From assembly GCA_023150835.1 (NCBI GenBank), contig JAKLKB010000040.1:1-45792 (forward strand): a stretch of 45,792 nt of DNA, in the 5' to 3' direction. The stretch is from Myxococcota bacterium (GTDB lineage Bacteria; Myxococcota_C; UBA6777). A program made the position numbers and the translations under genes. Numbering within the stretch: position 1 is the first letter of the stretch; every line of letters begins with the position of its first letter. This document shows, one piece after another, positions 22,253 through 41,792 of the stretch. A model generated the notes under the pieces. It was not told where the DNA came from. It saw only the letters and a program-made list of their open reading frames with translations, and made no database searches.

Positions 22253-22382
22253 GTGGCTAAAAAACTCCGTGTTCGCAGCACATCAAGCGAGACGGCTGTT
22301 GGTTTGAAAAAGGCTGCTCGCTCCGCCAAACACGGGTTCAAGGGAGCCGCGCTCCCTTGTGGGGTGTGGGGTCAAACCCAAA
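22253..22382 (-). repeat. ~130-bp dispersed structured element, copy C
   Basis: Reverse complement GGGTTTGACCCCACACCCCACAAGGGAGC..GCTCCCTTGAACCCGTG..GGCGGAGCGA..TCGCTTGATGTG..GCGAACACGGAGTTTT..GCCAC matches copies A and B. Confidence 0.85.
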
Positions 22383-22408
22383 GCCATCGTTCTGCGTTGT
22401 TGTGCGGA

Positions 22409-25400
22409 TCAGTCGTCGCTGGCGAGAAGCTGAGAGGCCGAAAGAGAGAGGGGTGGGGATTGTGCGGAACCTTCGAGAAGAAGGGAGGGAAGGTCTTTAT
22501 CGGCTTCGAGGATCAGGTGTGCCTTGAGGGGTGGAGCGTCAGGTTGGGACATGGCTTGAAGCAGCATACGGCTCAAAGGACGGGCAACATAGCGTTCGAT
22601 GGCGCGCAAGAGCGGTCGCGCCCCAAGCGAAGGGTCGAGGCTTTTTTTGACGAGAGCGGCCAAAGCATCGTCGTCTCCGCGTAGATGGACATCTTGTGCA
22701 GCGGCACGTTCGGCCAATTCATCGAAGTGCATGCGTGCGATCTTGAGTAGGTCTTCTTCGACGAGGGGTTGGAAGAGGATGGTTTCGTCGACGCGGTTAA
22801 GGAATTCGGGTCGGAAAAAGCGCCGTAGTTCGGAATCGATCTCTTCTTTGGGGACGGCATCTTCTTCGGAGACTTGGAAGCCGACGGCTTTGCGTTGTCG
22901 TTGGAAACGTTCGGCGAGCAAGTTGGAGGTCATGATAAAGACAGCGTGTCGACCATCTACGGTGCGGCCCAAAGAGTCGGTCAATCGGCCTTCTTCAAAC
23001 AATTGCAAGAAGAGATCGAGGACTTCGGGATGGGCTTTTTCGATCTCGTCCATCAACACGACGCTATAGGGGCGATGGTGAAGTTGTGCGAGGATCTGGC
23101 GCTCTTCGCCGTACCCGACATAACCGGGGGGAGCGCCGATCAGTCGAGAAGTGCTGTGCTTTTCGGCATACTCGGACATATCGAGGCGGATTAAGGCGGA
23201 TTCTTGGCCGAAGAGTTCTCGGGCCAAACAACGGCAAAGCTCGGTTTTGCCGACCCCACTCGGTCCCAAGAACAACATCACAGCGGTGGGTCGGCTGGCG
23301 CGTTTGAGGCCAGCGCGTCCCATCTGTATGGCTTGGGAAACCGCCTTGACAGCGGGTTCTTGGCCGAGGACACGTTGGGCGAGACGTTCTTGGAGTTTGA
23401 GCAAGCGGATGCTTTCTTCGAGGGAGATCTCGCCCACAGGGATGCCAGTCCAATCAGCGAGGACTTTGAAGACGGGAGCTTCGGTGACAAGGGGCCGCTG
23501 TTCGGGAGAGCGCAGTTTGCCTTCGGAAGTCAAGAGCGACGCAGCATATCCACGTAAAGTGACCAAAGCACAGGCTTCATCGATCAAATCGAGCGCCTTG
23601 TCAGGAAGGCGTCGGTCGGGCAAGTAGCGCACGGCAAGTTCGACGGCAGATCGCATGACTTCATCGGAGATCTCGACTTTGTGGTGTTCTTCGTAGCCGT
23701 GACGTGCGCCAAAAAGGATATCCATCGTTTCTTCCATCGACGGTTCTTCGAGGAATAGCGGGTGGAATCGACGTTCAAGGGCGGCGTCTTTTTCGATGTG
23801 TTTGCGGTATTCAACAGGAGTCGTGGCTCCGATGCAACGCAACTCTCCACGCGCAAGGGCGGGTTTTAGGATATTGGCGGCATCAAGTGTGCCTTGGTGT
23901 GTTTCGCCTGCGCCCACAACGGTATGGAATTCATCGAGAAAGAGGATGACTTCGGGATGTTCGCGTGCTTCGCGGATCACCATCGTCAAGCGCTCTTCAA
24001 AGTCACCGCGATAACGGGTTCCTGCGACGAGGCTGGAGAGGGAAAGCTCGACAAGACGGCGTCCACGCAGATCTTCGGGGACAGCGTGGGCGACAATACG
24101 CTGTGCCAGACCTTCGACAAGGGCGGTTTTTCCGACCCCTGCTTCTCCGATGATCAGGGGGTTGTTTTTGAAACGGCGCAAGAGGATCTGTGCCAAGCGC
24201 ATCAGTTCTTCGGAACGCCCCGTCAGCGGGGGCAATGCGCCTTGTTCCGCAAGCAGCGTCAGGTCTCGACCGTAGCGATCGATGGTGGGCGTTTCACCGC
24301 CCGGACGCACGCGGGCTTGGGGGATCTCTCCGCGCAAGAGTTTTTCGTAGAGCTTTTGCGGATCAGCGCCCATCTTTTTGAGGACTTCAAAGGCCAAGCC
24401 TTCGCCGCTTTGCAAGATGGAGGCAAGCAAGTGTTTTTCGCGGACAAGGTGATCGTTGTCTTTGCGCGCTACACTTTCTGCGGCTTTGAGCGCACGAGCG
24501 CAGCGTTGCGTGGGGAGGATCTTGGCGTCGAGCGTGGCATGACCAAAGCCCAAAGCGTAGCGGATGGTATCGCGGACTTTTTTGGGATCGAAGCCCGAGG
24601 TTTCGAGCAAAGCACGCGTCACACCACCGGGACACTTGGTGAGGCCGATAAACAAGTGCGGTGTTCCGATAAAATCTTGGCGAAGGTTCTTGGCTTCCAT
24701 CAGGGCGATGCCGATGGCTTGTTCGAGATCGAAGTCGTATTCGAGCGTTCCGCCTTCCATCGAAAGGGAAGCATCGGCGGGGTTGGCCGCAGGTCCATTT
24801 ACGATGGAGGGGTCGGAACCACCGGAGTTTGCACTTACAGAAGAAGCTCCCGCAGAGGCACTTGCGGGTTCAAGAGAACGCAGCGGAACGGCTGTTTTGT
24901 TGCGAGCATCGGGTTGTTGCAACAGCAAGACGCCGGGATCGCCAAAAAAGACGAAGCTGGACCACGAAGCGTCTTGAGGATTGCGTTGGAGGAAGCGGCG
25001 ACGCGCTTTCATCAAGGCTTCTGCGGGGGGAGTTCGCTCAAACAAAAAGCGGTAGTAGTCGCTGATCATCTGGCGACCACCGCTTGTAAAGTTCGGTCGC
25101 AGCGCGATCACAACACCTTGGACGCCTTCGTCGAGCAGAGAGGAAGCAAAGGAAACGACCGTTGCGGGGGCGTTTGGCGGATGGGCATCGTCTGGGTGGA
25201 AATGAAAGAAAGCCCACAGCGGCCCCGAAAAGACGGTGCGAAGGCTTTTTGGGGTGAGTGGTTCGTTGCGGAGGGGGATCTGGGGTCCGCCGATGGGTTC
25301 AAACGAAGCGCGTGCAGCGACATGCAAGAGCGTGGGTTGAGAGGGTTTGTGGTGGGCTTTGAGGGCTTCTTGAAGGAGAATCCGATCGGTGGCTTCGGAA

Positions 25401-25936
25401 CCAACGAGGCTACGGCTTTGACGGAGCGGCAACTGGTCGGATATCACGTCGATCTCACGGTGTGCTTCTTCGAAGTCGCCGAGCAGGTCGCTCAACATCA
25501 CCACATGAAGATCATCGGGTGCGATGCCTTTGACCACTTCGGTGACCATGCTTGTCGACTCAAACCAGCTCGGCAAGCGGCCCATCGGAGCGCGCAGACC
25601 AAAGTATTCTTCGCCGTCGTGCAAGATCTCCCACGGAAACAGGGGATCTCCGCCACAGATCGCGATAGGCTGTTGATTTTGTTTAAGGATGGTGCGGAAT
25701 TCTTCGGGGATCAACAAGCGGTACAGCGTTTTGCCGATCTCCAAAAGCGTCGGTTGATCAACGCCTTTTTTCCCGGCAGCTGCGTCGTGTGCAAATGCCA
25801 TCATCTTCTGTAGTTCGGTGTCCCCTCGCTCGCCAAGATCTCGCCGAAACTCCATCGGGCCTTGGCGTGGACCCGCAAACCAACGAAATCGAAGAAGAGA
25901 ACCCTTTTTGGTGAGGTGCAGCTTGGGTGTATGCAT
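22409..25936 (-). CDS. CHAT-like domain fused to Clp-N and ClpA/ClpC-type double AAA+ ATPase
   Basis: N-term FPWEILHDG...[10 protein letters not shown] (CHAT hallmarks); Clp-[22 protein letters not shown]1 [24 protein letters not shown]2 [24 protein letters not shown] loop. Confidence 0.88.
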
Positions 25937-26131
25937 CGTAACCGTCGTTTCAATGGGCGCACCGAATCCGCTCGGGCGCGATGGAGGCTACCTCGCGGGG
26001 AGACAAGGCGTCCTTGCCTGTCTCTAGGCCGATCTTGTGTATGATAGTCCACACGCCCACCCCTGTAAAGAGCAACCACCGATCCTTTCCCTCAACAAAC
26101 TTCGCGCCCACCCACCCAAAAACCAGCGTAA

Positions 26132-26871
26132 TCATGCCGATCTCCACAACAATCCTTGCCCCCACAAAGCTCCCAGCGTATCGCCTTCCGTCAAAAGGCT
26201 TCGGACTTGTGCGTTATCCTTGATGCGGAACACCTTTGTGAATCCCTCTTTTTTCTCAAACCCAAACACTTCTTCCACCTTCGCAGCATCCAACAATTTA
26301 GGGGAATGTGTGCTGATCATCACTTGCCCACCCCGCCTCGCATAATCACGAAACTCCTCTGCAAGTTCTCGCATAAGCATCGGATACAACTGGTTTTCTG
26401 GTTCTTCCACACAAAGCAGTGGATGCGGTGATGGATCATGCAAAAGAACCAGATAAGCGAACATCTTGATCGTGCCATCGGAGACATGACTCGGACGAGC
26501 TGCATGGATACGAAAATCGGAAAGGTGCCAACGCTCGATCAATCGGCGAAATGCACTCACGACCTTAAATCGTTCAAACTGACCAAGTCCTTTGATAGCG
26601 GGGATATCTGGGGAGTCTTCACGGAATTAGATCTCCCAAAAGATATCCCCGCCGTCTTGTTCGCGGCTGCGCAGTTCCTTCATCCCACCGCGCCGAGAAA
26701 CCGCCACAGAAGCATTGTGTTGCAGAACATCACGCAAAAATCCGAACACATCAAAAAACGTCGACTTTCCGCCCCCATTTGCTCCCACAAAAAACGCAAG
26801 GGGGGAATACGTTCGATCGTCACATCACGAAAAACCCGAAAATTTTTGATCGTCATCCGTTCGATACGCAT
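26132..26871 (-). pseudogene. Decayed ABC-type (AAA_21/AAA_15-like) ATPase
   Basis: MRIERMTIKNFR, frameshift at C6 run, then FVGANGGGKST (Walker A) in another frame; later SDGTIK, LLCVEEPENQLYP, STHSP; much shorter than full family members, implying internal deletions. Confidence 0.8.
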
Positions 26872-28205: not shown

Positions 28206-31200
28206 ATGTCGTGGATTTATCCCGAACGTTGGTCTGGTTGGTCGGAACACGCCCGCGTAGGAGGCGGATTATTCGACGATCCCCATCGTTTCGCACGGAT
28301 GGTGCAGGCTTGTTGGGAGCAATACAGCCAACAAAACGACCTCGCACGTCGCACACCGCTCACTCCGCTCCCTCAACTGCGCCTCGTCTTCTCCCAAGAT
28401 GCCCTCGCCCAAGAACAATGGGCCCCTTGCTTCCAATCCCTCGAACTCTGGTTCAATCCCACCCTCAACGGCTTGGCCCTGCCTTTTGCGCTGCATCCGC
28501 CGACACACGACGAAGCCGCTCTACTACGCGAACCACGCCATTTTTTCTTTCACCTCGAAAGCCCCCGACGCCAAGCCCTGCGCTGTTTGTTTTTGCTTGG
28601 TGAGCAGATCATCGGCGCGATCCCGCTCGGTGAAGTCCAACTCAACGGAGATACACGCACTTTTACGGTCACTCGCCGCTTTGGTATCACAACAAAAAGC
28701 TCGGATCTGTCGCGCTGTATCGACGCCAATCCGATCGCCAACGACCTTCCCTCCGCGATGCGCGATGACTTGCGCTATCTTGGATGGCGACTGGTCTTTC
28801 GGATGTGGGGCGGCGAAGAAGAGATCCAGATCGAAGATGTCGCCGCAACAGGCCGACTCAACGGCGGGATCTTTCAATTACACGACGGCTTGCGCTGCCC
28901 TCTCGGGCAGGCCCTGACCCTCTACGAAGGCCACGAAGACGGCACCCCGCGACCGGCCCTCCGCCTTCGGATGTTGCTCGTCCCCAACGATATCCAGCCC
29001 GCCCCACCCCAGATCGTTCACCTCCAAGCCTTCGCCCACACCAGCGAAGGCCACCCCCCACAGATCGAGTTCCAAGCGTGGCTACGAAACGGCCCTCTCG
29101 ACGATCAGCTCTTGACCTTGGCTCTCCTTGAACAAGGCGCGCAGTTCCAACTCCAAGAAGACGGAACCACCGAAGATGGCGCACTTCACCGCTACCGTTT
29201 GTTAACCGCCCTTCCACCACGATTGCACGCAGGCGATCCCCTCACCTATCGGCTGCTCGGGCAAAATCGCTATGGCTTATCCTTTTCGACCCGCCCCCAA
29301 GAACTCACCCTCCAACAAACCACCCGCGTCCAATTCCAAGGGCCTCGCGTCGTACAACGACGACAACTCGAACAAGATTGGGAGGTGCGTTTTCGCCTCG
29401 AAACCCCCGTCCCTGTCGGATCGATCGATCTTGCTTCGCTGACGTTGTGGTTGCGTGCCGACGAAGCACCTGCGATCTCTATCCCCTTGGCTCATGTCCA
29501 AAAAGAGAGCTTGGTCTTTCGGTTTTTGCCACGTGTGATCCAGATGCAGATGCCCCTTGAGCGCATCCTCCAAGCGCGACAACTCCATCTCTGGCTCGAA
29601 CAACATCCCGACGAAGAATCCTCCGAAACCTTCCCTTCGTGGCGACTTTGTCTCGCAGGCAACCAAGCCCAACAACCGCGTGTCTCGTTGCGCATCGTCC
29701 GCTTTGATGCTTCCGATCACCTGATCGCAAGCGGCACAGAAACGCTCTTGCCCTTGCATGGCGAACTACAGATCGAAGGGTTTCGCCTTCAAATCCTCCC
29801 AAGTCTCTACGATACCCGTCAGTCCGCCACCAGCGAACGCGAGATCTGGGATCTGGTCTTGTGTGAAGACGAAGACGGACCACGCCGCGTCCGCCTCACC
29901 CACCAAGGGGCGGGATGGATGCGTGTTCAACGCCTCACAAAAAACACTCCACCTCCCGCCCACCCCGTTCGCGCCTTTTGGCTCAGTTGCAGCCCCGAAG
30001 ACCAGATCATCCCCCACCCCAACGAGCGCAACCCCGAAGGTGGCCCCTGCTTCGCTTTTGGCCTTGGATGGGGACAAACCCAAGAGATGGCACAGATCCG
30101 CCCCACCCAAGAAGGCTTTCGCCTTGCTCGCCATCGAACCCATCTCGTCGTTCGCACCGATCAAACCGAACTGATCGTCAGCCCTTATACCCATCCCGAA
30201 GGCATCCTGCTCAACCAAGATCCCCAACAAGGTTGGCTACTTGTCGATCAAGTCCTCCTGCACTATCGCTGTTTTCAAGAGGACACTTGGCTTCACGCCG
30301 ATATCACTTTGCTTGGCTACCTCTGCAAGCGCCAACCCTCCGCTGCCCTTTTGCAATTTTCGCTCGGCGAAACCACAAATCTCCCTGCGATCTTGCCCCA
30401 CCTCCCGCACATTCGACTCGCCAGCCAAGGCCCCGCAGGACGTCTCACCTTCCAGCTTCCCGCACCCATGACACGCCGCGATCCCGATCGTTATCTTCTC
30501 CAAGAACACTCCACCCCCACCCTCCCGCAGCCCCTACAGTGGGGACAACGCTATCAACGCGGTCGCTTCGCCTTTTCCTGTTGGCGACTCACACCCACCC
30601 CCTCCGCATCCCCACAAGGCGGAACACTTCAACACGATATCCTCCTCGATATCCGCCAACAAACAGGCCGCAAGCACTTTGCGCTGGCCGTTGTCACTGG
30701 GCGCCTTGGCTATTGGAGCGAAGGGTCGGCCTTTTTGCAACAAACGGGCGTAGCAGCCCCCTTGTTTGCGCCCGATCACCCGCGCAAACTTCCCGACGGC
30801 CTAGAAGCGCCCGCTGGTGAGCTGATCGTCGGAACCGATCCGCGCTTCGCCGACCTCGTGATTCCTACGTTCTATCCAACCGATGCAACCGTCCTCTTCA
30901 GCATCGCGTATCGCGATGCGCAATGGTGGGTCCGTCCTTTTCAAGCCCCTTGTCTCGGCCAATCCCTGCAATTTCTCCATGATGGCGGCCTCACCCGCAG
31001 CGAGACGCTTTGGACAACGCCTTCTCCCTTGACCCCCGAAGAAGAACCTTGGAAGTGGTGGCGCTGCGGCTCCGCTCTATTCGAACTCAGCGTGGCCACC
31101 CATGACCGCGAAGAATACCCCAACACCGACGCGATGCTTTCGCTGCGGGGCCTGTTTTGCGCCGCCACAGATCGCTTGATGATCGGCGGTCCTCCCCGTC

Positions 31201-33839
31201 TATCCGCACTTCCCTTGCTCGGAAGCGGTTTCCCTGACGAACAAAAGCGCCCTCTGTTCTCCCTCGAAGCCTCTGGCTTGCAAGTGCGCTTTGATGGAGA
31301 CGCCATGCTTGGGATGCGCCATCACGAGGCAGGGACCGACCTTTTCAGCAGATTCCAACAGACCCTCGCCCAAACCCCCCTCTCTCCCGCATCAGCCCAC
31401 CACTTACCTTGGCGGCTACTTCAACCCTCCGCCGAGATCGCCCTTCCGCTACTCCCACCCAACCTACACCTCCAAATGCCCACACATCCGTACGCTTTGC
31501 GCAACCACGATCAACTTCGACTTGGTCAACTCAACTTTTGCTATCGCCGACGAGACGAAAGCGACGGTTATCCCGCTCCTTCCGTGATCCCCGCTGCCCT
31601 TGATCTCCAACCTGCGGATCACTTCTCGATCCACTTCTCGGCGACTTCTCATGGATTCCTCCATCCTTCGGGTGATCCCGTGGATCACTTGATCATTGGC
31701 CGCTTGGATCCTCACCAAGATCGCGGCCCACACCTGCCTTCCGCTCTTGGCGAGATCTGGCTCGGCACTCCCTTTCTTGAAGAAGATCATACCTGTATGC
31801 GCCTCTGCCTCAGCGGCTACAGCCCACGACACGCTCTGCTGATCTCCCGAAAAAACGGACAGATCACCCTCCACATCCCTGCCCCCAAAGCCCCCGGTGC
31901 TTATCACGTCGTACTCAACGATACCCCCCAACGCTCCGCCAAAGAGATCCCTCTCCAAACCCCAACACATCTCCACATCAATCATCTGTTCCGCTTGCGC
32001 CTTCAGCCCCTTCCAAACGCCCTTTCCGTTCTCTTTGATGGCTACCTGCTCGCTCATCCCGACGCCCCACACCTCCCCGTCCGCTTCTCTTCCGAAAATC
32101 GACGTGGTGTCATCCACTTGCGCACCGTGCATCCTCCCGATCTCCAACTCCAACCGGACTCCCTTCCTCCGTCATTTCGCGCTGTCGTGTGGCCCACCCC
32201 ACCCGATCACTCTCGCGCATCTCTTCACCCCACAAACCCGGTCCATCCGCCGTCTCCTCGATCACCCCTCCAACCCCACTCCTCGACACTTCCTCCCTCT
32301 TCGACGCAACAAGCCACCACACCCGAGATCGCTGCGATCCAGCGATTCGCCCCCATCAACGGGCCACTTCGACTCCCCGATGGCGAGGAGATCATGCTCG
32401 TCGATCTTTCCACATGGACGCACGACCTCGCCGAGATCGCTCGCCCACCACAAACCGATCGACTGCTTTGGTTCGACGCACACACACCCCACACCGAACT
32501 GCTCTTCCCCCCACAACACACCTCTCCGCTCGCTGCCTCTGCCCTCGACGAAGGCAGCCAATTTGCCTTCGGTACAGAATCCTCCCAAACGACTGACGAT
32601 CTCACGCCTCCCCCATCGCCCGTCTCCTCCGCTCAAGAAGATGACGGCAGCAGCTTCGCTTTCCTTCCCCTGCCGCAACACACCCAACACGCCCCCTCCT
32701 CACAGCCCATCCATCTCGGACCACCTTCGCATCCGTCACATACCGCCGACTTTACCGCTACTTTGCACACTGCCGACGTTACGACATCCTCACACACATC
32801 CCATACCGCCGATCTCGCGGTCCCTTCGTCCCCTTCGCACACCGCCGATTTTACCGCTACTTCCTCTCCTTCACATACCGCTGACTTTACCACCCCTTCA
32901 CAAACTGCCGATATTGCGGTCCCTTCCTCTCCTTCACATACCGCTGACTTTACCGTTCCCTCGCACCCTTCGCAAACTGCCGACTTCGCGGCTCCTTCAC
33001 ATCCTGCACAAACTGCGGGTATTGCGGCTCCTTCACACCCTTCGCACACCGCCGATTTGACCGCCCCCTTAAGCCTTTCGCACGCTGCTGATGTTTCAAT
33101 CCCACCGACAAACGCCCATTCCTCCGAGGCTTCGCCTGCAAACCACACCGAAGCGTCTCGTGCGGTCCCATTGGCTTCGCCCGTTCCTCAAGAAGTCCAA
33201 GCGCGCATCGGGTTTTTTGAAAAGACATCCTACGCCGAGACGTGTTTTGGTTACGCGAGTACACAAGACGGGTGGCAGATCGGGATCTTTGCACGCCAAG
33301 ATCGGATCTTGGCTCAACTTCTCCAAGCTCCTCTGGATGCGGAGGGATGGATGGCGGGGGGATTGGCTGCGATCTGGCGAAATGGAGACATCTTGCCCCT
33401 ACAGCTTCCGCAGTTTTTGGAAGTCGGCGATCTGATCTTGTGCGGTCCTGCGGCTTTTCTTTGCGAAGAAGCTCCGCACCAAGGGCAGATGCGCTTGCGG
33501 CGTCGTTGGCTTTGGCTTCCGCAAGACATACGTTGGACACTCCAAAGCGCATCGTTGCCCGATATCCCGCAGGATGCGTTCGCACTAAGCCACCACACCA
33601 CCGCGTGGTCTCTGCGCATCGAACCCGCGCAGGCTGGACATTTGTTGATCGCGCCCCAAGCAGCGCCCGCACTGCACTGGACCCAAGAGCCGCTCGCTGT
33701 TTCACACGCCCTCGAAGGGATCGAGAGCGCACAACAAGCTCTCCCCCCCCCCTCGACAACTCTTCCCGCTCACCTTTCACCCGCAGCAACGCCGTTTACC
33801 CTCTGCGTGGGTGACTCCAGCCAAGGCAACGCATCATGA
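28206..33839 (+). CDS. 1877-aa cytoplasmic protein with FN3/Ig-like and several degenerate FHA-like segments plus Thr-repeat array
   Basis: Long ORF with AAGGAG RBS; FHA-like pieces LIVGTDPRFADLVIP, LRNHDQLRLGQLNF, LIIGR..SPRHALL..VVLND, LEVGDLILCG; domain calls tentative. Confidence 0.7.
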   Translation: MSWIYPERWSGWSEHARVGGGLFDDPHRFARMVQACWEQYSQQNDLARRTPLTPLPQLRLVFSQDALAQEQWAPCFQSLELWFNPTLNGLALPFALHPPTHDEAALLREPRHFFFHLESPRRQALRCLFLLGEQIIGAIPLGEVQLNGDTRTFTVTRRFGITTKSSDLSRCIDANPIANDLPSAMRDDLRYLGWRLVFRMWGGEEEIQIEDVAATGRLNGGIFQLHDGLRCPLGQALTLYEGHEDGTPRPALRLRMLLVPNDIQPAPPQIVHLQAFAHTSEGHPPQIEFQAWLRNGPLDDQLLTLALLEQGAQFQLQEDGTTEDGALHRYRLLTALPPRLHAGDPLTYRLLGQNRYGLSFSTRPQELTLQQTTRVQFQGPRVVQRRQLEQDWEVRFRLETPVPVGSIDLASLTLWLRADEAPAISIPLAHVQKESLVFRFLPRVIQMQMPLERILQARQLHLWLEQHPDEESSETFPSWRLCLAGNQAQQPRVSLRIVRFDASDHLIASGTETLLPLHGELQIEGFRLQILPSLYDTRQSATSEREIWDLVLCEDEDGPRRVRLTHQGAGWMRVQRLTKNTPPPAHPVRAFWLSCSPEDQIIPHPNERNPEGGPCFAFGLGWGQTQEMAQIRPTQEGFRLARHRTHLVVRTDQTELIVSPYTHPEGILLNQDPQQGWLLVDQVLLHYRCFQEDTWLHADITLLGYLCKRQPSAALLQFSLGETTNLPAILPHLPHIRLASQGPAGRLTFQLPAPMTRRDPDRYLLQEHSTPTLPQPLQWGQRYQRGRFAFSCWRLTPTPSASPQGGTLQHDILLDIRQQTGRKHFALAVVTGRLGYWSEGSAFLQQTGVAAPLFAPDHPRKLPDGLEAPAGELIVGTDPRFADLVIPTFYPTDATVLFSIAYRDAQWWVRPFQAPCLGQSLQFLHDGGLTRSETLWTTPSPLTPEEEPWKWWRCGSALFELSVATHDREEYPNTDAMLSLRGLFCAATDRLMIGGPPRLSALPLLGSGFPDEQKRPLFSLEASGLQVRFDGDAMLGMRHHEAGTDLFSRFQQTLAQTPLSPASAHHLPWRLLQPSAEIALPLLPPNLHLQMPTHPYALRNHDQLRLGQLNFCYRRRDESDGYPAPSVIPAALDLQPADHFSIHFSATSHGFLHPSGDPVDHLIIGRLDPHQDRGPHLPSALGEIWLGTPFLEEDHTCMRLCLSGYSPRHALLISRKNGQITLHIPAPKAPGAYHVVLNDTPQRSAKEIPLQTPTHLHINHLFRLRLQPLPNALSVLFDGYLLAHPDAPHLPVRFSSENRRGVIHLRTVHPPDLQLQPDSLPPSFRAVVWPTPPDHSRASLHPTNPVHPPSPRSPLQPHSSTLPPSSTQQATTPEIAAIQRFAPINGPLRLPDGEEIMLVDLSTWTHDLAEIARPPQTDRLLWFDAHTPHTELLFPPQHTSPLAASALDEGSQFAFGTESSQTTDDLTPPPSPVSSAQEDDGSSFAFLPLPQHTQHAPSSQPIHLGPPSHPSHTADFTATLHTADVTTSSHTSHTADLAVPSSPSHTADFTATSSPSHTADFTTPSQTADIAVPSSPSHTADFTVPSHPSQTADFAAPSHPAQTAGIAAPSHPSHTADLTAPLSLSHAADVSIPPTNAHSSEASPANHTEASRAVPLASPVPQEVQARIGFFEKTSYAETCFGYASTQDGWQIGIFARQDRILAQLLQAPLDAEGWMAGGLAAIWRNGDILPLQLPQFLEVGDLILCGPAAFLCEEAPHQGQMRLRRRWLWLPQDIRWTLQSASLPDIPQDAFALSHHTTAWSLRIEPAQAGHLLIAPQAAPALHWTQEPLAVSHALEGIESAQQALPPPSTTLPAHLSPAATPFTLCVGDSSQGNAS
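32724..33092 (+). repeat. ~11 imperfect repeats of S-H/Q-T-A-D-F/L/I/V
   Basis: Repeated TC.CA.AC.GC.GA. units spaced 27-36 bp. Confidence 0.85.
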
Positions 33840-36800
33840 ACCCACCTTCTTTTTCCATCCACCACGTTGAACTACACATCGACGCGCTTTGTGCATGGCG
33901 CGATCGCTACCGCGAAGTCTACAGCAGCGGCACACAACGCCCACAACTGGGCACGGAGATCTGGTGGGCCGAAGATCACACCGGCCAAGAACGCTGCCTC
34001 AAAGAGTTCATGGCTGCTGATCTCGAAGACTTTGGACGCAAGATCCCCGATCCTGCGTGGGGATTGGGGGGCAAACCTCGCGGCTCACAACGCGGCCTTG
34101 CGCCTCGACGAGCCGCCATCTACGACCAGATCCATCACGGCTCACTCAAACAAGAGATCGCACGCTTCGGACCCAACGCAAACCCCGAGTTTCGCAGCCT
34201 CTTTTGCGTCTCTGCTTTTGAACTCGAATCCTTAATCACCCAATTTGCCCGCTATTATGGATGCACCCAACTCGTCCAAGCCGATCACTGGGGACCGATC
34301 CGCTTAGAAAGCCGCAAAAAAGCTTTTCCTCTGATCGAGATGGAACGCCTTTCTCCGCTTACATTGCCCCACCCGCACGATGCCCTGAGCATCCTCGATC
34401 GCGTGCTGGCGATGATGTCTGCGGTCGTTCAGCTTCACAGTATGCAGATCCCCTTGCGCTGCTATCCTCCTGAACTGGTTCCTGATCTCGATCTTCCCGC
34501 CTCTTGGAACTTTGCGCGTCCCTTTCATTACGATCTCTCCCCCGACCAATTCTTGCTGCGTGCAGGAAACGCCCAAACCACCGACCAAGTCGTCTTGATC
34601 GACTTTGGGGCAGCTCGTATCGATCAAACCGATTTTTCCGAGTTTGCGTGGCGCAGCATCCCGGGAAAAGACTACTATCAGCCCCCCGAACGGCGCGCTC
34701 ATCCTCTTGGGCAGACGCTCGCGTTATCGTATCGCTCCCACCCCGCTTATGATCTGTACGCGCTGCTTGTGATCGCCCTTTTCCTTTTTGCTCGCCAAGA
34801 TCCACACCAAGAAAAGATCCAACAAATCGATTCATGGAACGATACCACCGGCTTTTACGCTTTCTTGTTCCAAGATGACCTCGCCTCCGCACTCCAAGCC
34901 TTCTTTCCCTCTCGCAAGTACATCGATCCGACCCCCTTGATGGCCTTGATGCGTGCTGTCTTTCAAAAAAAGCCCGAACAACGCACCGAATCGCTTCTCG
35001 CTTTACCAGACCTCCGCTGGCCCCACGAACAAGACTGGATGTTGCTCCCCCGTGCAATGGATCTCCTCGCCAAACAATCTATGGGACGCCGTTTTCAGAT
35101 CCAATGGAAACAAAATCCGATCTCCCTCCCACAACACCACGCACCTTTTCCGCTCCACGCCCACCTCGATCCACAACAAACCCGATGGACCCCCGGAAAA
35201 TGGGAAAACGGACGCATCAACCACCCGCTCTATTCACTCGATCAGATCTTCTTCTTCCAAGACGGCGCACTCGGACCCGTCCTTTTTAACGGACACATCC
35301 ACCCTCAAACACCCGGCAAACACACGATCTACGCTTCCTTTGGCGGATGCGTCGACTTCCTCAATCCCCTGATCGTCGAGATCCAGCCCACACCACAACC
35401 ACCCGCACAACAGCCGCAGCTTTCCCCACAACCACCCGCACAACAGCCGCAGCTTTCCCCACAACCACCCGCACAACAGCCGCAGCTTTCCCCACAACCA
35501 CCCGCACAACCCGCACCACAACCCTATCTCTCCCATCATCCCGCCACTTCCGCTACCTCCGCAGCTTCCGCCACTTCCGCTACCATCCCAAGCCCACATG
35601 ATACAATTCTTGATGATCCAGCCGTCTTGCAAGCCGTCTGGGAAGATATCACACGCAGCAAAAGTCTATCGCCTCAAGCAACCCATCCTCTCGAACAAAC
35701 CGACCCCTACGCGGCCTCCGCACAAACGGCTCCGCACTACACTTCTGCGCCTTCGATGCCATCGAGCTTTCACACAACACAACCTCCCTACACAAGATAC
35801 TCGACCTCCAGCCAAGCCGAGCCTTCCGACATCTTTTCTGCCCCCAAAGATCTATCAGGCTCCGCGATCTTTCCTGCCTCCAAAGACCTCGATGATTCGG
35901 GCATCTTTGAATCACCCTATCCCAGAAACGCGCCTGCTTCCGTACCTTACAACACACCTGCTTCAACACCATACAACACACCTGCTTCTGCGCCTTATCA
36001 CCCGCAATCTCCCGCAGGAACACGCATCCATCACCGCGAAGCAGCACAATCCGCCCCGCCTCCATCAGCGCCTGTTGGACGGCCCCACCCCAACGACGCA
36101 GCACAAATCCCTCACAAGGCCCAAAACGACGGAACGGGATTTTATGATCGTGAAGCGGCCCTTGCTTCCCAAGGCTCTTCTCCGCACGCCCTCGCTTCGC
36201 CACCGCCTTCTTCAGCGCATTCGGCACGTCCCGCGTTTGCGGCTTCTCCTCTTCCGACCCCGCGTGCTTGGCAAGCCCCCTCAAGCGTCTCCCCTGAGAT
36301 GCTTTCCGATCCGCCGTGGGTCGCCGATCTAAAGGCTCCCGCCGCAAAGCTCCGTCCACCCGACGCCAACGCGCCTGTTTACCCGCCCTCAGCCCACACA
36401 GACTTCGGCTCGGATCGTTATGTTCGTGCGGATGCCGCCATCGACCAATTGGCCGAACACTCCGCCTCTTCTCGTCCGGATATCTCCGATCCGACCGCCT
36501 CATGGCTCCAAGAGATCCAACGCTGCGATGATCCCGCAAAGCTACTGCGCGATGAAGAAAATGCCCAACGGATGGCCAACGAAGAACTCACGACGCTACT
36601 GTTGATCAATATCCTCTCGCGTCATTGTCAGCTTCTGTGTGATCGCCATCAACTGCGAGCGCGCAGCCAAGAACTCCACCGCCTCGCTCTATTGCGTGAG
36701 CGCACCATGCCCACCCCACACATCGAAGGTCTCTGGCTCAACAACCTTGCGATGCTTTGTTGCCGCCTCGCTCTCTATGAGCGGATCTGGCCGCTGTGGG

Positions 36801-36970
36801 ATGGCCTGCTCGGTATCGATCCGATCAAAGCCCTCGCTGCATGGCTCAAACAACACCAAAACACCACCCCTCCCGAAGCAAGCCCCCGCTTTTGGGAGAT
36901 CCGCGATTGTGTGCGCGATACCCTCGAAACGGGCCTACGCATCCGCCAATCTTTGCGCAAACGCACTTAA
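33836..36970 (+). CDS. Atypical Ser/Thr protein kinase with Ig-like domain, Pro-rich linker and helical C-terminus
   Basis: CLKEF, IEMERL, HYDLSPDQFLL, LIDFGAAR, PGKDYYQPPE, YDLYAL; ATGA overlap with upstream gene. Confidence 0.8.
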   Translation: MNPPSFSIHHVELHIDALCAWRDRYREVYSSGTQRPQLGTEIWWAEDHTGQERCLKEFMAADLEDFGRKIPDPAWGLGGKPRGSQRGLAPRRAAIYDQIHHGSLKQEIARFGPNANPEFRSLFCVSAFELESLITQFARYYGCTQLVQADHWGPIRLESRKKAFPLIEMERLSPLTLPHPHDALSILDRVLAMMSAVVQLHSMQIPLRCYPPELVPDLDLPASWNFARPFHYDLSPDQFLLRAGNAQTTDQVVLIDFGAARIDQTDFSEFAWRSIPGKDYYQPPERRAHPLGQTLALSYRSHPAYDLYALLVIALFLFARQDPHQEKIQQIDSWNDTTGFYAFLFQDDLASALQAFFPSRKYIDPTPLMALMRAVFQKKPEQRTESLLALPDLRWPHEQDWMLLPRAMDLLAKQSMGRRFQIQWKQNPISLPQHHAPFPLHAHLDPQQTRWTPGKWENGRINHPLYSLDQIFFFQDGALGPVLFNGHIHPQTPGKHTIYASFGGCVDFLNPLIVEIQPTPQPPAQQPQLSPQPPAQQPQLSPQPPAQQPQLSPQPPAQPAPQPYLSHHPATSATSAASATSATIPSPHDTILDDPAVLQAVWEDITRSKSLSPQATHPLEQTDPYAASAQTAPHYTSAPSMPSSFHTTQPPYTRYSTSSQAEPSDIFSAPKDLSGSAIFPASKDLDDSGIFESPYPRNAPASVPYNTPASTPYNTPASAPYHPQSPAGTRIHHREAAQSAPPPSAPVGRPHPNDAAQIPHKAQNDGTGFYDREAALASQGSSPHALASPPPSSAHSARPAFAASPLPTPRAWQAPSSVSPEMLSDPPWVADLKAPAAKLRPPDANAPVYPPSAHTDFGSDRYVRADAAIDQLAEHSASSRPDISDPTASWLQEIQRCDDPAKLLRDEENAQRMANEELTTLLLINILSRHCQLLCDRHQLRARSQELHRLALLRERTMPTPHIEGLWLNNLAMLCCRLALYERIWPLWDGLLGIDPIKALAAWLKQHQNTTPPEASPRFWEIRDCVRDTLETGLRIRQSLRKRT
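35393..35510 (+). repeat. 33-bp perfect tandem repeat (PQPPAQQPQLS) x3.5
   Basis: CCACAACCACCCGCACAACAGCCGCAGCTTTCC at 35393, 35426, 35459, partial 35492. Confidence 0.95.
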
Positions 36971-37004
36971 CCACCGACGCAGAGAGCATCCTTGACGCCG
37001 TTCT

Positions 37005-37124
37005 TTCAAGCATATCAACAACGCCGAGACAAAGACGACTATATCGAAGGTTGTCGAAGCATTTGGATACGTTTGTCCAGTATTGTGTTCACCAGAAGAA
37101 CTTGGGGGTTCAGATGAGGAATGA
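37005..37124 (+). pseudogene. C-terminal remnant of a PIN-domain (VapC-like) toxin
   Basis: Hand translation FKHINNAETKTTISKVVEAFGYVCPVLCSPEELGGSDEE* matches the typical PIN tail WNxKHIxNA...GYxxPxICTPEEL; no start or N-terminal part. Confidence 0.7.
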
Positions 37125-37314
37125 TCCGATCGTAGAAGAAGTCCGCAAGTATCGACAAGAGCATGCCGCATCGTTCGGCTATGACCTTGCCAAAATCTGC
37201 CTTGCGTTGCAAGAACAAGAGAGAACATCCAGTCGCCCTGTCGTCAATCGCTCTCCTCGTTTGCTGCCAAAGAAAAACGCCACCGAATCTTTTGTTGCAA
37301 ACCAGCAGTCCTAA
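37114..37314 (+). CDS. Small (66 aa) antitoxin-like partner of PIN toxin
   Basis: MRNDPIVEEVRKYRQEHAASFGYDLAKI..., family usually overlapping the 3' end of such PIN genes. Confidence 0.7.
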   Translation: MRNDPIVEEVRKYRQEHAASFGYDLAKICLALQEQERTSSRPVVNRSPRLLPKKNATESFVANQQS

Positions 37315-37632
37315 CGTCAACGACCGATCGTCACCCTCTCTGCTGGTGCTGGAATTTGCCAGCGGATTATCACCGAGTCCTCTAGAGAAAGTGCTTGCTG
37401 ACGCTGACGCCGTCGTGCTCGCAAAAATCGTCGAAAACAAAGTGACTGGTGTTCAAACCAAACCAAAAAAAGAAACCGACGCGATCGCCTCCAAAGCCTC
37501 GCAAAGCCCCGTTGACAGGGAAGCCAAATATGGCGAAAGATGCTTGGTTCTTGCCCCTCTGCGTTGCATTGCATCCAAGCGCACACTATCCACCACGCAC
37601 ACGAACCAACGCTCACCGAGAGGAGTCTTGCG

Positions 37633-40530
37633 ATGTCCTTACGAATCTTGCTGACAGGCCGCAGTGATCGCCATACTCGCCCCTCAAATCAAGATCGCCT
37701 CTACCCTTCGGAGGACAAACTACCCGCGAGCCTCGATCTGCCTCAATGCCTTGCAGTGGCCGATGGGATGGGTGGCACAGACAACGGAGAATTTGCGGCA
37801 CAGATCGCCGTTCAAGACCTACCGCACTTGATGCACCCGTCGCGTTGGTCGGTACTTCACGCAGGACCGAAACATCCGCCACCCCAAGAAAACAATCTCT
37901 CGCCCGAACAATCCATTGAGGCGTATTTTCGCTACATCAACCAGCGCATTATTCAAAGTGCCGGTGGTTCGGGTCAATCCGGGACGACGTTGTCATTGAT
38001 CTATCTTGACAACGAGCATTTTTGGCTGGGCCATATCGGGGACAGTCGTGTGTATCTGTATCGCCAAAACACACTTACGCGGCTGACGCGAGACGATCAT
38101 GCGCTGGACTACTTCAAAGAAAAAGGCGCGATCACGCTCAACCCTGCGGATCTTGACCTAAACGAAGCCGATCGCCGCTATCTTGAAGAACAAAAACTGC
38201 ACCATCACACACTGCTGTTTTTACCCGATGCTCCGCCCTCACAGCCGTTGGACAACACCGCCATCCTCTCGTTGCTGCGTGATCAAGTCAAACACCTGCA
38301 CCAGATCGGAAAACTCAGCCCGATCGAAGAACTCCAAGATCGCCTGATGCGCGCCCTTGGCTCCGACAAAGCCTTTCAAGAACGCCCGATCCTGCAACCC
38401 GCTATCGAGCAGATCCAAGCCCTGCCTCGCCCAAGCGATCTGTTTTTGCTTTGCACAGACGGTCTTTGGAATCACCTCACCGATCAAGCGATCGCCGAGC
38501 GTTTCCGACAGCTTTTGCGCCGCAGCAAAACCGCCCACCTCGATCCCGCCCTATTGACGTGGTGTTGCGATCAATTAATCGAAGACGCCATCCAAGCAGG
38601 TTCCGACGACAACATCACCGTTTTGCTTGGGCAGATCCTGCCTTCTCGCACCGCTCCGCACACCCTTTCGAGCGAAAATTACCCCAAAGACCTCAAAAAG
38701 ATCCTCGCCTCCGCTCATCTTGCAGACCAAGAACCCGAGGATCTTTTTCAACAACCCACCCGACTCGATCCGCTCCTTCTCGAAGAAGCTCCCGACGATC
38801 TGTTTGCACAATCCACCTCTTTCCAAACCAAACCCGCACAGATCGGCGACTTTACCGCACCTCCCACAATCACCGCTGCGCCCTATTCTGCCCCGCCTCC
38901 AACAACCACGCCCCTCCCAACCGATGCACCCAAACCAACACCTTCTCGCCTCTCTCCCATCCCCTCCACAAGCCCGACAGGTTCTTCGGCCCAAATCACC
39001 GAACCCTTCCGCGCAACCTCTTCACAACCCACACCTTCAAAAAACACACAACCCAAAACCCCCATCGTCCACACCATCGACGATATCGAAGCCCTCCCAA
39101 GCCAACCCACCAAACTTCCCCCCCCTCAAAACGCCTTGCGCGCCTCTTTTTCCCTTCCCTCCGAAACCAAGCCCCCCCAACCCTCCGAAACCTCGTTCAG
39201 GCCCAAAACGCCCCAACCCTCGGCCTCTCCGAACGAAACCAAAACGCCCCAACCCTCGGCCTCTCCGAACGAAACCAAAACGCCCCAACCCTCGGCCTCT
39301 CCGAACGAAACCAAAACGCCCCAACCCTCGGCCTCTCCTGCTCCCCACAAAGCATCCACCCCAACCACGAACCAAACGGCCCCACAAGACCCATTCCACG
39401 ACTCTTTCGCCAAAACCGTCCAAGATCAGCCTGTGGCTCCCCTCGATCCCTCGGTACTTTTGGCGGCTTCACCTGCGCCCGCTCACGCCCCCACAGGAAC
39501 CCGCTTTTCTGCCCCCATCCCTTCTGCCCCAGAACGCCACACGCCCACAAAGCCCCATCCGATCACACAACAAGAACGCTTCCTCTGGATCGGCATCTCC
39601 AGCACGCTGTTTTTGCTTTGTTTGTTTGCATGGCTCGGCTCTCCTCCATCTCCCGCCGTCCCCACCCACCCGCGCACCAACGCCACCCCACGACGCCCCA
39701 TGCCTTCGCCCCTTCCTTCCGCTGCGATCGCCCCCACACCACCGCCCACACCACCCGCGCCATCACCTTCGACCACCACGCCCACACCTCCGCACGCACC
39801 CGCCAACACTCCCAAGCCGCCCTCACCACCGCCCGCACCGACAGGCCCGTGGCTTTGGCTCCCAAGCCAACTCCCCAAACCTCTCGATTCTTCCTTCCTT
39901 CAAACGCGCCTGCGCATCCTCCAACAGATCCACCTCCTCCACCAAGATCTCGCTCTGCAATGGGGGCTTCCTCCTGAAACACTTCGCCGCCTACGCCGAA
40001 CCCTCCATCAACAAGCCCTCAGCACCCAAGTCATCCATCAATACAGCCTCCAACCGATCACATCCACCCAAAAACAAGCCGTCGATCTCGCCCTACAGAC
40101 CGCATTAATCGCCACCCTTGAAGCACTCGCTCCCACCTACACCCAAAAGCTCGACATGATGCGCTCTCCCCCCGAACTCCCCCAAGGCGCTCCGTTATTA
40201 CCCTTCCCTTCGGCCAAACGAAAAAGCGCCCGCCAAGACTTGATCCAGCGTTGGCTGCAACGCGCCCAACAGATCGGCTGGAACCTGTGGCAACTCGAAC
40301 TACTCGCCGAACAGATCCTCGATTTTCCCTATCCATCCAACGCCACTCTGCGCAAAGGGCCGTGGATCCCATCCGATCTCGACGCCATCCGACGCACCAG
40401 CACCCGACTCCAACGCGCCATCCAACTCATCCAAAAAGAAGACCCCAAACACGCCTTGCTACCCGATCTCCAAAACCGCCTCCAGATCCAACAAGCGTGG
40501 CTCAACGAAACCATCAAAGAAAAACCTTAA
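37633..40530 (+). CDS. PP2C/PPM Ser/Thr phosphatase with Pro-rich linker, one TM helix and extracytoplasmic C-domain
   Basis: RPSNQD, AVADGMGG, GTTL, HIGDSRVY, LLCTDGL, GSDDNIT; TM FLWIGISSTLFLLCLFAWL; GAGAGGAG RBS. Confidence 0.9.
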   Translation: MSLRILLTGRSDRHTRPSNQDRLYPSEDKLPASLDLPQCLAVADGMGGTDNGEFAAQIAVQDLPHLMHPSRWSVLHAGPKHPPPQENNLSPEQSIEAYFRYINQRIIQSAGGSGQSGTTLSLIYLDNEHFWLGHIGDSRVYLYRQNTLTRLTRDDHALDYFKEKGAITLNPADLDLNEADRRYLEEQKLHHHTLLFLPDAPPSQPLDNTAILSLLRDQVKHLHQIGKLSPIEELQDRLMRALGSDKAFQERPILQPAIEQIQALPRPSDLFLLCTDGLWNHLTDQAIAERFRQLLRRSKTAHLDPALLTWCCDQLIEDAIQAGSDDNITVLLGQILPSRTAPHTLSSENYPKDLKKILASAHLADQEPEDLFQQPTRLDPLLLEEAPDDLFAQSTSFQTKPAQIGDFTAPPTITAAPYSAPPPTTTPLPTDAPKPTPSRLSPIPSTSPTGSSAQITEPFRATSSQPTPSKNTQPKTPIVHTIDDIEALPSQPTKLPPPQNALRASFSLPSETKPPQPSETSFRPKTPQPSASPNETKTPQPSASPNETKTPQPSASPNETKTPQPSASPAPHKASTPTTNQTAPQDPFHDSFAKTVQDQPVAPLDPSVLLAASPAPAHAPTGTRFSAPIPSAPERHTPTKPHPITQQERFLWIGISSTLFLLCLFAWLGSPPSPAVPTHPRTNATPRRPMPSPLPSAAIAPTPPPTPPAPSPSTTTPTPPHAPANTPKPPSPPPAPTGPWLWLPSQLPKPLDSSFLQTRLRILQQIHLLHQDLALQWGLPPETLRRLRRTLHQQALSTQVIHQYSLQPITSTQKQAVDLALQTALIATLEALAPTYTQKLDMMRSPPELPQGAPLLPFPSAKRKSARQDLIQRWLQRAQQIGWNLWQLELLAEQILDFPYPSNATLRKGPWIPSDLDAIRRTSTRLQRAIQLIQKEDPKHALLPDLQNRLQIQQAWLNETIKEKP
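39203..39338 (+). repeat. 36-bp perfect tandem repeat (KTPQPSASPNET) x3.8
   Basis: CCAAAACGCCCCAACCCTCGGCCTCTCCGAACGAAA at 39203, 39239, 39275, partial 39311. Confidence 0.95.
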
Positions 40531-40532
40531 CC

Positions 40533-41513
40533 ATGCCCACACACACCACCCTTCGGCCCTGTTTTGGCCGCTGCACCTTGTCTGTGTTGTTTGTGTTCCT
40601 TGCTGTTTTTTCGACGACACTTTCGGCCCACCCACCGAACGATCCAACGCTCCAACTACGACTCCAAAAAGAGAAGCACTTGTTGCAACGCTGCGGCAAA
40701 CTTTGCAAAGGCCGCCTTGATCGCCTCCCCAAGCAACAACTTGATGCGCTCTTGCGCTGGAGCCAAACACACCTCGACTTCCACCAACGCCTCCGCCTCT
40801 TGAGCAAAAGCCTGCTCGGCGCTCCTTATCGCTACGGCCCCCTCGGTGAAGGCCCCACAGGCCGTTATGATCGCGATCCGATCTATCGCCGCGATCGCTT
40901 TGATTGCGTGACCTACCTCGAAACCGTCATGGCCTACGCGATGGCGCACAACGAAGCCCAATCCATCCCGATCCTTCAACAGATCCGCTACAAAAACGGC
41001 ACGATCGACTTCGCCCACCGCAACCACTTTACTTTCCCGCAATGGCTCGTCGAAAACCACAAACGCGGTCTGATCTTTCCTGCCACCGATCCCCTCGGCC
41101 ACCCGTACCTTCAAAGCTACCACCAAGCCATCCCCCCTTCGCTCTGGGAGGGCACCCGCTGGAAACAGCGCATCCCCTTCTCCATGCTCCCCAAAAGCTA
41201 CACCGTCCGATACGTTCCACTCGAAGATATCCCCAAGATCGCCCATAAACTCCCTTGGTTCGGCTGGATGGGCGAAGTCTTTGATCTTCCCCATCACGCC
41301 TCGACCATCGCTCACGTCGGTTTCTTTGTCCGCGAATCCCCAAACCATCTGTATTTCCGACACGCCAACGCTGGACCTCGTGGTGTCCGCCAAGATCTCT
41401 TGCTCCCCTACGCCAAAGCACGCTTGCGCAACCGCCCCAAACATCCACATCCCAAGCGCATCCTCGGCTTTATCTTCGCCACCTTCCCACAACATCCACC
41501 CTCCCTTCGCTGA
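40533..41513 (+). CDS. Secreted DUF1460/AmiA-like NlpC/P60-fold N-acetylmuramoyl-L-alanine amidase
   Basis: Signal peptide; LLGAPY..GPLGEG, FDCVTYLETVMA (catalytic Cys), IRYKNG, RNHF, HVGF, RHA. Confidence 0.85.
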   Translation: MPTHTTLRPCFGRCTLSVLFVFLAVFSTTLSAHPPNDPTLQLRLQKEKHLLQRCGKLCKGRLDRLPKQQLDALLRWSQTHLDFHQRLRLLSKSLLGAPYRYGPLGEGPTGRYDRDPIYRRDRFDCVTYLETVMAYAMAHNEAQSIPILQQIRYKNGTIDFAHRNHFTFPQWLVENHKRGLIFPATDPLGHPYLQSYHQAIPPSLWEGTRWKQRIPFSMLPKSYTVRYVPLEDIPKIAHKLPWFGWMGEVFDLPHHASTIAHVGFFVRESPNHLYFRHANAGPRGVRQDLLLPYAKARLRNRPKHPHPKRILGFIFATFPQHPPSLR

Positions 41514-41709
41514 AAACACCGCGTTTTTCGTCCACTTCTTCACTCCCCTGTACTTGACCGAATCTTTTCGCTACGTTGAAACGTCTCTGCAACCGAAGTC
41601 GGGATCGCTCGGTTTTCCAAAACCAAAGCATGGACCGCTCTCTTTATACGGTATCCGAGAAATGTGTAATCGAAACGTCGAGACGAGTTGCGATGCCAGC
41701 CCTGTTCTT

Positions 41710-41751
41710 GGGCTGCCACAAGGAGCTGCCCCTACGCCTTTACGATCACAC
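41710..41751 (-). repeat. GTAG-type REP hairpin
   Basis: GGGCTGCCACAAGGAGCTGCCCCTAC + GCCTTTACGATCACAC, same layout as 17120. Confidence 0.65.
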
Positions 41752-41792
41752 AGTGAGCGGATATCGCATGAATTGCTTAAAGGAACGCGCCC

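Follow-up and report, generated by a model that had tools for sequence, protein, structure and literature searches.

A contig of 45,792 nucleotides (nt) from a Myxococcota bacterium (JAKLKB010000040.1 of assembly GCA_023150835.1; the whole of this stretch is called the window below) encodes a protein of 1175 amino acids in which a caspase-like CHAT domain is joined to the front of a complete Clp/Hsp100 unfoldase. Both residues of the catalytic dyad are replaced in the CHAT domain, which, judged by its sequence, cannot work as a cysteine protease and appears to be a member of the fold family and not an active enzyme. The domain is nevertheless under purifying selection. On sequence comparison, the protein is one branch of a wider CHAT-Clp family, other members of which have a working-looking protease domain. 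CHAT and Clp proteins are each well known and their fusion is apparently undescribed: a full-text literature search, with most subscription journals outside its coverage, brought up no publication in which CHAT is fused to Clp or to another AAA+ protein, and the names that the fusion bears in databases are automatic only (for example "ClpA/CHAT domain-containing protein"). The initial annotation of this DNA, made from the letters alone, had called the architecture uncharacterised; it is conserved in relatives, none of which is described in the literature searched. The reading that we favour, with belief and doubt about equally balanced, is that of a receptor: the dead CHAT domain, sitting above the pore, would bind a specific protein and hand it to the motor, which would pass it on to ClpP.

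The fused gene and its CHAT domain

The gene is a single open reading frame (ORF) with an ATG start, and the fusion is genuine. A word-indexed search with residues 1-400 returned 14 proteins, 13 of them full-length CHAT+Clp proteins, and the full-length relatives are 93 to 41% identical to the window protein in the CHAT part. The lineage is placed in the Myxococcota by NCBI, and forms a small separate phylum of six genomes in GTDB; the gene is present in five of these six (own genome counted), the sixth being 64% complete. The junction stretch is found in runs from nine studies, and three gap-free contigs span it: a 3479-nt contig from an RNA library covers window positions 22532-26010 with zero differences, and DNA contigs from two other studies run from 22405/22408 to 26200 with 10 and 47 substitutions. 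Doubts left by the initial annotation, that the fusion might be absent from relatives or lack support in reads, are thus removed. Transcription of the gene is likely, although the RNA-library contig may stem from contaminating DNA.

The Pfam CHAT family (PF12770) matches residues 66-333 along profile positions 2-289 of 289 (E 6.5e-13, 49.2 bits for a cut-off of 24), and a CHAT profile of our own reaches 170.7 bits over residues 54-347. Motifs of the region are FPWEILHDG (residues 100-108), EIDVI (161-165), LLHVAARA (203-210), AFFHFHP (242-248), ALMKARR (307-313) and one more at 325-334, and every motif quoted in the initial annotation occurs in the translation at protein level. Residues 1-355 were modelled with AlphaFold2 from 15 aligned sequences (predicted local distance difference test, pLDDT, 74.7; predicted template modelling score, pTM, 0.62). 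The best match of this model among solved structures, found with Foldseek, is the Craspase TPR-CHAT/Csx29 protein (7y85_D, E 3.3e-9, template modelling score on the query, TMq, 0.48), followed by DdvA (a CHAT-bearing anti-sigma factor), SAVED-CHAT, MALT1, separase and caspases, with 64 matches at E <= 0.001. Residues ~56-340 are therefore modelled as a CHAT domain of the caspase/hemoglobinase fold, as had been expected of the N-terminal region. When the whole protein was compared by sequence with the PDB, Clp/Hsp100 chains alone were returned and no CHAT chain, the CHAT part being matched by the fold search, and PADLOC gave no defence-family match for the CHAT region. The fold and sequence family are shared with Craspase TPR-CHAT/Csx29, DdvA, SAVED-CHAT and separase; unlike Craspase TPR-CHAT and other CHAT proteases, the window protein has both dyad residues replaced and is fused to an unfoldase, and it also differs from Craspase in having no TPR repeats and, at its locus, no context of clustered regularly interspaced short palindromic repeats (CRISPR) or of a cyclic-oligonucleotide-based antiphage signalling system (CBASS).

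The dyad was scored with a profile of 112 CHAT domains taken from proteins without a Clp part, 107 of which have both His and Cys (His in 107/112 and Cys in 110/112 at the reference columns). A query-anchored phmmer alignment was dropped, as its Cys column was poor (Cys in 63/116) and some relatives were mis-scored (P0041, for example). Arg209 of the window protein falls at the catalytic-His column, with LLHVAARA lying on the consensus IIHYAGHA at maximal posterior probability, and His247 at the catalytic-Cys column, with AFFHFH on VFLNAC (posterior from 9 down to 4). The sole Cys within residues 1-345 is C94, which is not conserved, and the clade alignments hold no conserved Cys anywhere in the domain. 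The domain therefore appears inactive, as initially annotated, and no intact dyad lies elsewhere in it. In the structure report on DdvA (PMC11506125), the dyad of the CHAT domain has its His where a beta turn ends and its Cys in the following loop, the same two places that are compared here. Among 12 members of the window's clade, position 247 drifts (H, Y, A, T, Q, G, E), whereas two residues at the former active site are conserved and specific to the clade, namely Arg209 (11/12, Asn in one) and His245 (12/12; other CHAT domains mostly have Asn there).

Could the domain still be a hydrolase, working with a new nucleophile and a residue such as His205, His245 or His247? The invariance of His245, and that of His205 in 14/14 aligned fusion proteins, could be read in this way, both residues lying in or beside the former active-site strands. 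Yet ordinary CHAT domains share the His at position 205 in 120 of 124 cases, which makes it a structural residue of the family. Within the clade, moreover, position 247 is free to vary, and a conserved Cys is missing from the domain. A second clade of fusions, considered below, has also lost the dyad with other replacements, which looks like relaxed catalysis and not like a new mechanism. Altogether we consider residual hydrolysis very improbable.

The strength of selection was estimated against a sister genome. The CHAT domain differs from its counterpart by 56 synonymous and 7 non-synonymous changes (ratio of non-synonymous to synonymous rates, dN/dS, 0.033), and the Clp part by 65 and 2 over residues 401-862, the reach of the sister contig (dN/dS 0.009). 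Because purifying selection maintains it, the dead domain must do something. Mean pairwise identity among the 12 clade members is 0.50 for the N-terminal extension (residues 1-55, kept in relatives with the same start Met, the distant P0013 and P0014 included), 0.54 for CHAT, 0.31 for the linker, 0.86 for Clp_N, 0.88 for D1 and 0.72 for D2.

The Clp motor

The remainder of the protein carries Clp_N repeats and two AAA+ modules, in both of which Walker A, Walker B and the pore loops (YRG and GYVG) are intact. The Pfam families matched along the chain are CHAT, Clp_N, AAA, AAA_lid_9, AAA_2 and ClpB_D2-small, and the description of this half in the initial annotation, including the lack of a coiled-coil M domain and a VGF tripeptide at the ClpP-docking position, stands in every part. 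The best solved-structure match is Bacillus subtilis ClpC (3j3s, 648.8 bits), aligned in two stretches. Left out between them are ClpC residues 411-464, the M domain, which have no counterpart here. The segment from DKALD to GIPV measures 56 residues, compared with ~100 in ClpC relatives and ~163 in ClpB relatives. VGF at 1018-1020 aligns on kyVGFnvqde of B. subtilis ClpC, a position whose tripeptide is known to be the ClpP-docking element. From its sequence, the protein is a class-I Clp/Hsp100 unfoldase of the cytoplasm, ClpC-like but of the kind that has no M domain; it has the hydrophobic-Gly-Phe/Leu signature of ClpP-coupled Clp ATPases, and docking to ClpP itself is predicted.

Compared with ClpC of B. 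subtilis and ClpC1 of mycobacteria, the protein has the same Clp_N, two AAA+ rings, pore loops and aligned VGF, but lacks their half M domain (a coiled coil, UVR-like) and bears an extra 395 residues (CHAT and linker) ahead of Clp_N. It resembles Escherichia coli ClpA in having a ClpP loop and no M domain, and aligns with it as one stretch over residues 403-1126, but it stays below the cut-off of the ClpA equivalog family TIGR02639 (648 bits for 993.15) and sits on the tree with M-less ClpC-like proteins. From ClpB/Hsp104 it differs by the absent long M domain and by the VGF loop; the ClpB equivalog TIGR03346 is matched in two stretches and not reached either (752.7 for 1232.1 bits).

A different reading makes the protein a remodelling or extraction motor that works independently of ClpP, much as ClpV or ClpB do, and that its pseudo-CHAT domain directs to a particular complex for disassembly and not for degradation. 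This would fit with scores under every NCBIfam equivalog cut-off, with the absence of an adjacent ClpP gene (both ClpP genes of the genome are on other contigs), and with three family members that have Ser, not a hydrophobic residue, before Gly-Phe. However, VGF lies exactly on its ClpC counterpart, the loop persists in 21/21 aligned fusions (hydrophobic in 18, Ser in 3, before Gly-Phe/Leu) and missing from 4 ClpB-type rows of the same alignment, and the closest solved relatives are the ClpP-coupled ClpC and ClpC1. We hold such a remodeller to be distinctly unlikely.

The genome encodes eight two-ring Clp paralogues, none of which has a ClpC-type half M domain, and its two ClpA-like paralogues (IGFG loops) form a clade separate from the window protein in the Clp tree. 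The second ClpP gene is found at C70:81827-82333 (C70 being a contig of this genome, G000), on a contig that carries three more Clp paralogues. These are clustered at ~105.9-117.2 kb of C70 (L011-L013), 23 kb from that ClpP gene, and are long Clp-like ORFs of 1433, 1269 and 1019 amino acids with LGF or VGF loops, a D1 Walker B without Asp-Glu, and neither D1 nor D2 pore-loop motifs.

The wider CHAT-Clp family

An exhaustive phmmer search with residues 1-355 gave 647 relatives at E <= 0.001. Further proteins of the CHAT-Clp_N-AAA-AAA order are present among the best 150 of these 647, and more were found with the Clp part as query. In 28 fusions compared for the dyad, 9 have His and Cys, one (a partial protein) has Cys only, and 18 have neither. 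Of the last group, 15 make up the window's clade and 3 a second clade, in which the replacements are Pro at the His column and His/Tyr at the other. Since 9 of the 28 keep His and Cys, the pseudo-protease probably derives from an active protease-unfoldase fusion. Dyad status tracks taxonomy among fusions from species genomes: four Anaerolineae loci retain the dyad, and the second dead clade includes two loci of Ktedonobacteraceae. The intact-dyad fusions (Anaerolineae loci L031, L035, L036, L037; proteins P0019, P0029, P0048, P0154 and others) share with the window protein the domain order and the Clp clade; they too have the x-G-F/L loop and no M domain, but they keep His and Cys and score 77-126 bits for the Pfam CHAT family, compared with 49 for the window protein.

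Did the two halves come together once? A tree of the Clp part (46 rows, IQ-TREE quick, LG+G4) places all 21 fusions included in one clade (SH-aLRT, the approximate likelihood-ratio branch test, 99), with short ClpC-like proteins without M domain as the sister group. The segment between D1 and D2 is short in all 21 (41-62 residues). The tree does not resolve the base of the fusion clade. A poorly resolved FastTree tree of the CHAT domain (134 rows, after the removal of 6 near-duplicate clade members) shows clustering of the fusions, with 5 changes for a mean of 20.7 after shuffling, and the smallest split that holds all 22 fusions has 100 rows. A single fusion event is thus supported by the sequences of the motor, and the CHAT tree neither confirms nor excludes it. 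Two basal fusions (P0198, P0199) have Pro at the His column, as in the second dead clade, and the sequence trees do not tell one loss of the dyad from two.

The same CHAT subfamily is also joined to Clp_N without any ATPase, in 11/11 candidates tested with Pfam (P0030, P0032, P0040, P0050, P0078, P0088, P0099, P0103, P0124, P0138, P0159; 635-948 amino acids), which are close relatives of the window CHAT domain. This recurrence, in which the two domains look like a unit, lends itself to another explanation of the dead domain, as a regulatory or assembly module. Docked on the Clp_N of its own chain or on an adjacent subunit, it would gate the pore or govern the assembly of hexamers. It would replace the control that ClpC receives from its M domain and adaptors, and is in keeping with the missing M domain and with the unusual conservation of Clp_N beside a variable linker. 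A predicted complex of CHAT (residues 1-345) with Clp_N (residues 396-548) points weakly in the same direction, with a median score of 0.40, a best of three controls of 0.00, three runs agreeing in at least 61% of contacts and a partner pLDDT of at least 81. Of 80 solved complexes, 58 reach the mark used for such predictions, as do 2 of 110 mismatched pairs; at scores of 0.60 or under, the figures are 7 of those 80 and both passing mismatches, so that a low-score pass misleads more often than not where there was no prior reason to expect the complex (our own alignments went into the prediction, to which these counts apply only roughly). In addition to this weakness, and to the lack of a reported interface in the prediction, active-dyad relatives share the layout, so that the original job would have been to act on substrates and not to regulate the motor, and the non-fused sister ClpC-like proteins manage with neither M domain nor CHAT. 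A regulatory module, the main rival of the receptor reading, seems rather unlikely to us.

Genomic surroundings and possible function

Coordinates of the gene and of its parts are collected in Table 1.

Table 1. The CHAT-Clp gene and its features, in window coordinates
Feature	Position	Strand	Evidence
Whole gene, CHAT-Clp fusion, 1175 residues and stop	22409..25936	-	ORF list, translation; full-length relatives; gap-free contigs elsewhere
N-terminal extension, residues 1-55: three short beta strands and a helix ahead of the CHAT core	25772..25936	-	AlphaFold2 secondary structure
CHAT (caspase-fold) domain, predicted catalytically dead, residues 56-340	24917..25771	-	Pfam PF12770, own CHAT profile, Foldseek, dN/dS
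Arg209 codon, catalytic-His column	25310..25312	-	CHAT profile alignment
His245 codon, two residues ahead of His247	25202-25204	-	Alignment
His247 codon, catalytic-Cys column	25196..25198	-	CHAT profile alignment
Ser/Ala/Pro-rich linker, residues 341-395	24752..24916	-	Sequence; AlphaFold2 pLDDT <50 from residue 346
Clp_N domain, two repeats, residues 396-548	24293..24751	-	Pfam Clp_N in two stretches; aligns with ClpC N domain
AAA+ module D1 and lid, residues 549-800	23537..24292	-	Pfam AAA, AAA_lid_9; Walker A GVGKT, Walker B LFLDE
D1 pore loop YRG, residues 642-644	24005-24013	-	Motif in translation
Short D1-D2 connector, residues 801-835, site of the M domain in ClpC/ClpB	23432..23536	-	ClpC alignment, segment lengths
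AAA+ module D2 and small domain, residues 836-1135	22532..23431	-	Pfam AAA_2 (E 8.4e-56), ClpB_D2-small; Walker A GVGKT, Walker B VLMDE
D2 pore loop GYVG, residues 938-941	23114-23125	-	Motif in translation
VGF tripeptide, residues 1018-1020, ClpP-docking loop position	22877..22885	-	Alignment with B. subtilis ClpC
Variable C-terminal tail, residues 1136-1175, and stop codon	22409..22531	-	Mean pairwise identity 0.31 in clade

A NAD-kinase-like gene lies near the CHAT-Clp gene across three genera, once on the other strand, and is the sole neighbour so recurrent. Three further genes are shared by G003-G005 only, one diacylglycerol-kinase-like (three genomes of two genera), one weakly Alginate_exp-like and one Ig-like. 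These recurring neighbours suggest no function. The initial annotation had thought of active caspases or their products as possible targets, an idea that the genome does not bear out: none of its 11 Peptidase_C14 (caspase/orthocaspase) matches is near the gene, and its only CHAT domain is that of the window gene. Four of the Peptidase_C14 matches are clustered on contig C203 of the same genome, at ~23-34 kb.

In the Anaerolineae loci L035, L036 and L037, and partly in L031, the active-dyad fusion gene stands in a conserved same-strand row. It is preceded there by genes for a sigma-70 region 2 protein and a ~300-residue protein that neither Pfam nor PADLOC matches, and followed by those for a TPR-bearing Ser/Thr kinase and a large TPR protein, an order which hints at regulated proteolysis in a signalling pathway. 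None of the sigma-70, ~300-residue or kinase neighbours is near the window gene.

Other observations concern the flanks of the gene. Between the NAD-kinase-like gene and the CHAT-Clp start (25950-26871, minus strand), the window holds a broken two-gene candidate defence pair, as frameshifted or deleted pieces only, in a spacer ~820 nt shorter than in the sister genome. There the pair is intact (L014, 8247-9422 and 9389-9790), with a 391-residue AAA_21/AAA_15 ATPase (601 bits to PADLOC HEC-01B) and a 133-residue partner (117 bits to HEC-01A). About 30 nt past the stop codon, at 22338-22379, lies a short GC-rich hairpin element with a GGGAGCGCGGCTCCC core, which is seen in many separate short contigs, 10-40 times as deep as the gene itself in four runs of four, and is likely a dispersed intergenic repeat of the genome; strain contigs diverge right at the gene end (22405-22408). 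Scans for promoters and terminators gave chance numbers (1 promoter-like site for 1.1 expected, 6 terminator-like sites for 5.5). Further along, at 28206-44309 on the plus strand, comes a run of very large ORFs (1877, 1044, 996 and 838 amino acids) with a strongly negative GC skew, the longest of which has no Pfam match, is 88% identical in the sister genome, and is not beside CHAT-Clp in other genera.

How could a dead protease domain serve an unfoldase? The choice of substrates by Clp unfoldases normally depends on the N domain and on adaptors that are proteins of their own, and it is plausible that the dead CHAT domain is an adaptor of this kind that has been built in. In the receptor reading, the ancestor would be a fusion of an active CHAT protease with an unfoldase, the active form of which would survive in Anaerolineae, and in the window lineage CHAT would have become a pseudo-protease kept as a non-catalytic binding module. 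Carried on a flexible linker of ~55 residues ahead of Clp_N, it would probably be positioned above the D1 pore entry, where it may hold a specific protein, most simply of the kind that was the substrate of the ancestral protease, and present it to the pore. The bound protein would then be unfolded and passed to ClpP by way of the VGF loops. Several points weigh against this account. CHAT is the fastest-evolving folded part of the protein, far below Clp_N and D1 in identity, and a looser structural role would fit too. The Cys column is aligned at moderate posterior probability only. ClpP docking rests on the alignment of a tripeptide that reads Ser-Gly-Phe in three family members. The CHAT tree does not group the fusions together, at least 2 of its 5 changes being forced by well-supported branches; its branches are long. 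Finally, no conserved neighbour of the gene points to a substrate or partner.

A bolder version of the receptor reading, which we think unlikely, would make CHAT-Clp a two-step proteolytic machine of a novel class. In its active form, the entry-side CHAT domain would clip a folded target to create a free end, which the attached unfoldase would pull into ClpP; clipping would have been lost in the window lineage and, independently or earlier, in Ktedonobacteria, leaving the dead domain as a substrate trap that commits one regulator to ClpP. If the Anaerolineae neighbourhood is taken as a hint, the pathway in which this regulator acts may be of the sigma/anti-sigma or the kinase type. Lon and FtsH also unite an unfoldase and a protease-fold domain in one chain. 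Their protease comes after the motor and takes the translocated chain, whereas the protease-fold domain of the window protein comes before the motor, on the entry side, and is predicted to be dead, so that degradation would need ClpP in trans.

With a protease-fold domain integrated before its N domain, a Clp unfoldase would select its targets in a different manner. The repeated joining of CHAT and Clp_N, with or without a motor, links bacterial caspase-like proteases to the Clp system, a link on which the full-text search found no paper. What makes the family most worthy of attention is that nature has paired active and dead forms on one chassis: comparison of the members with intact and dead dyads, a natural experiment, could show how an enzyme changes into a receptor, and whether cleavage by an endoprotease can prepare a substrate for an AAA+ motor.

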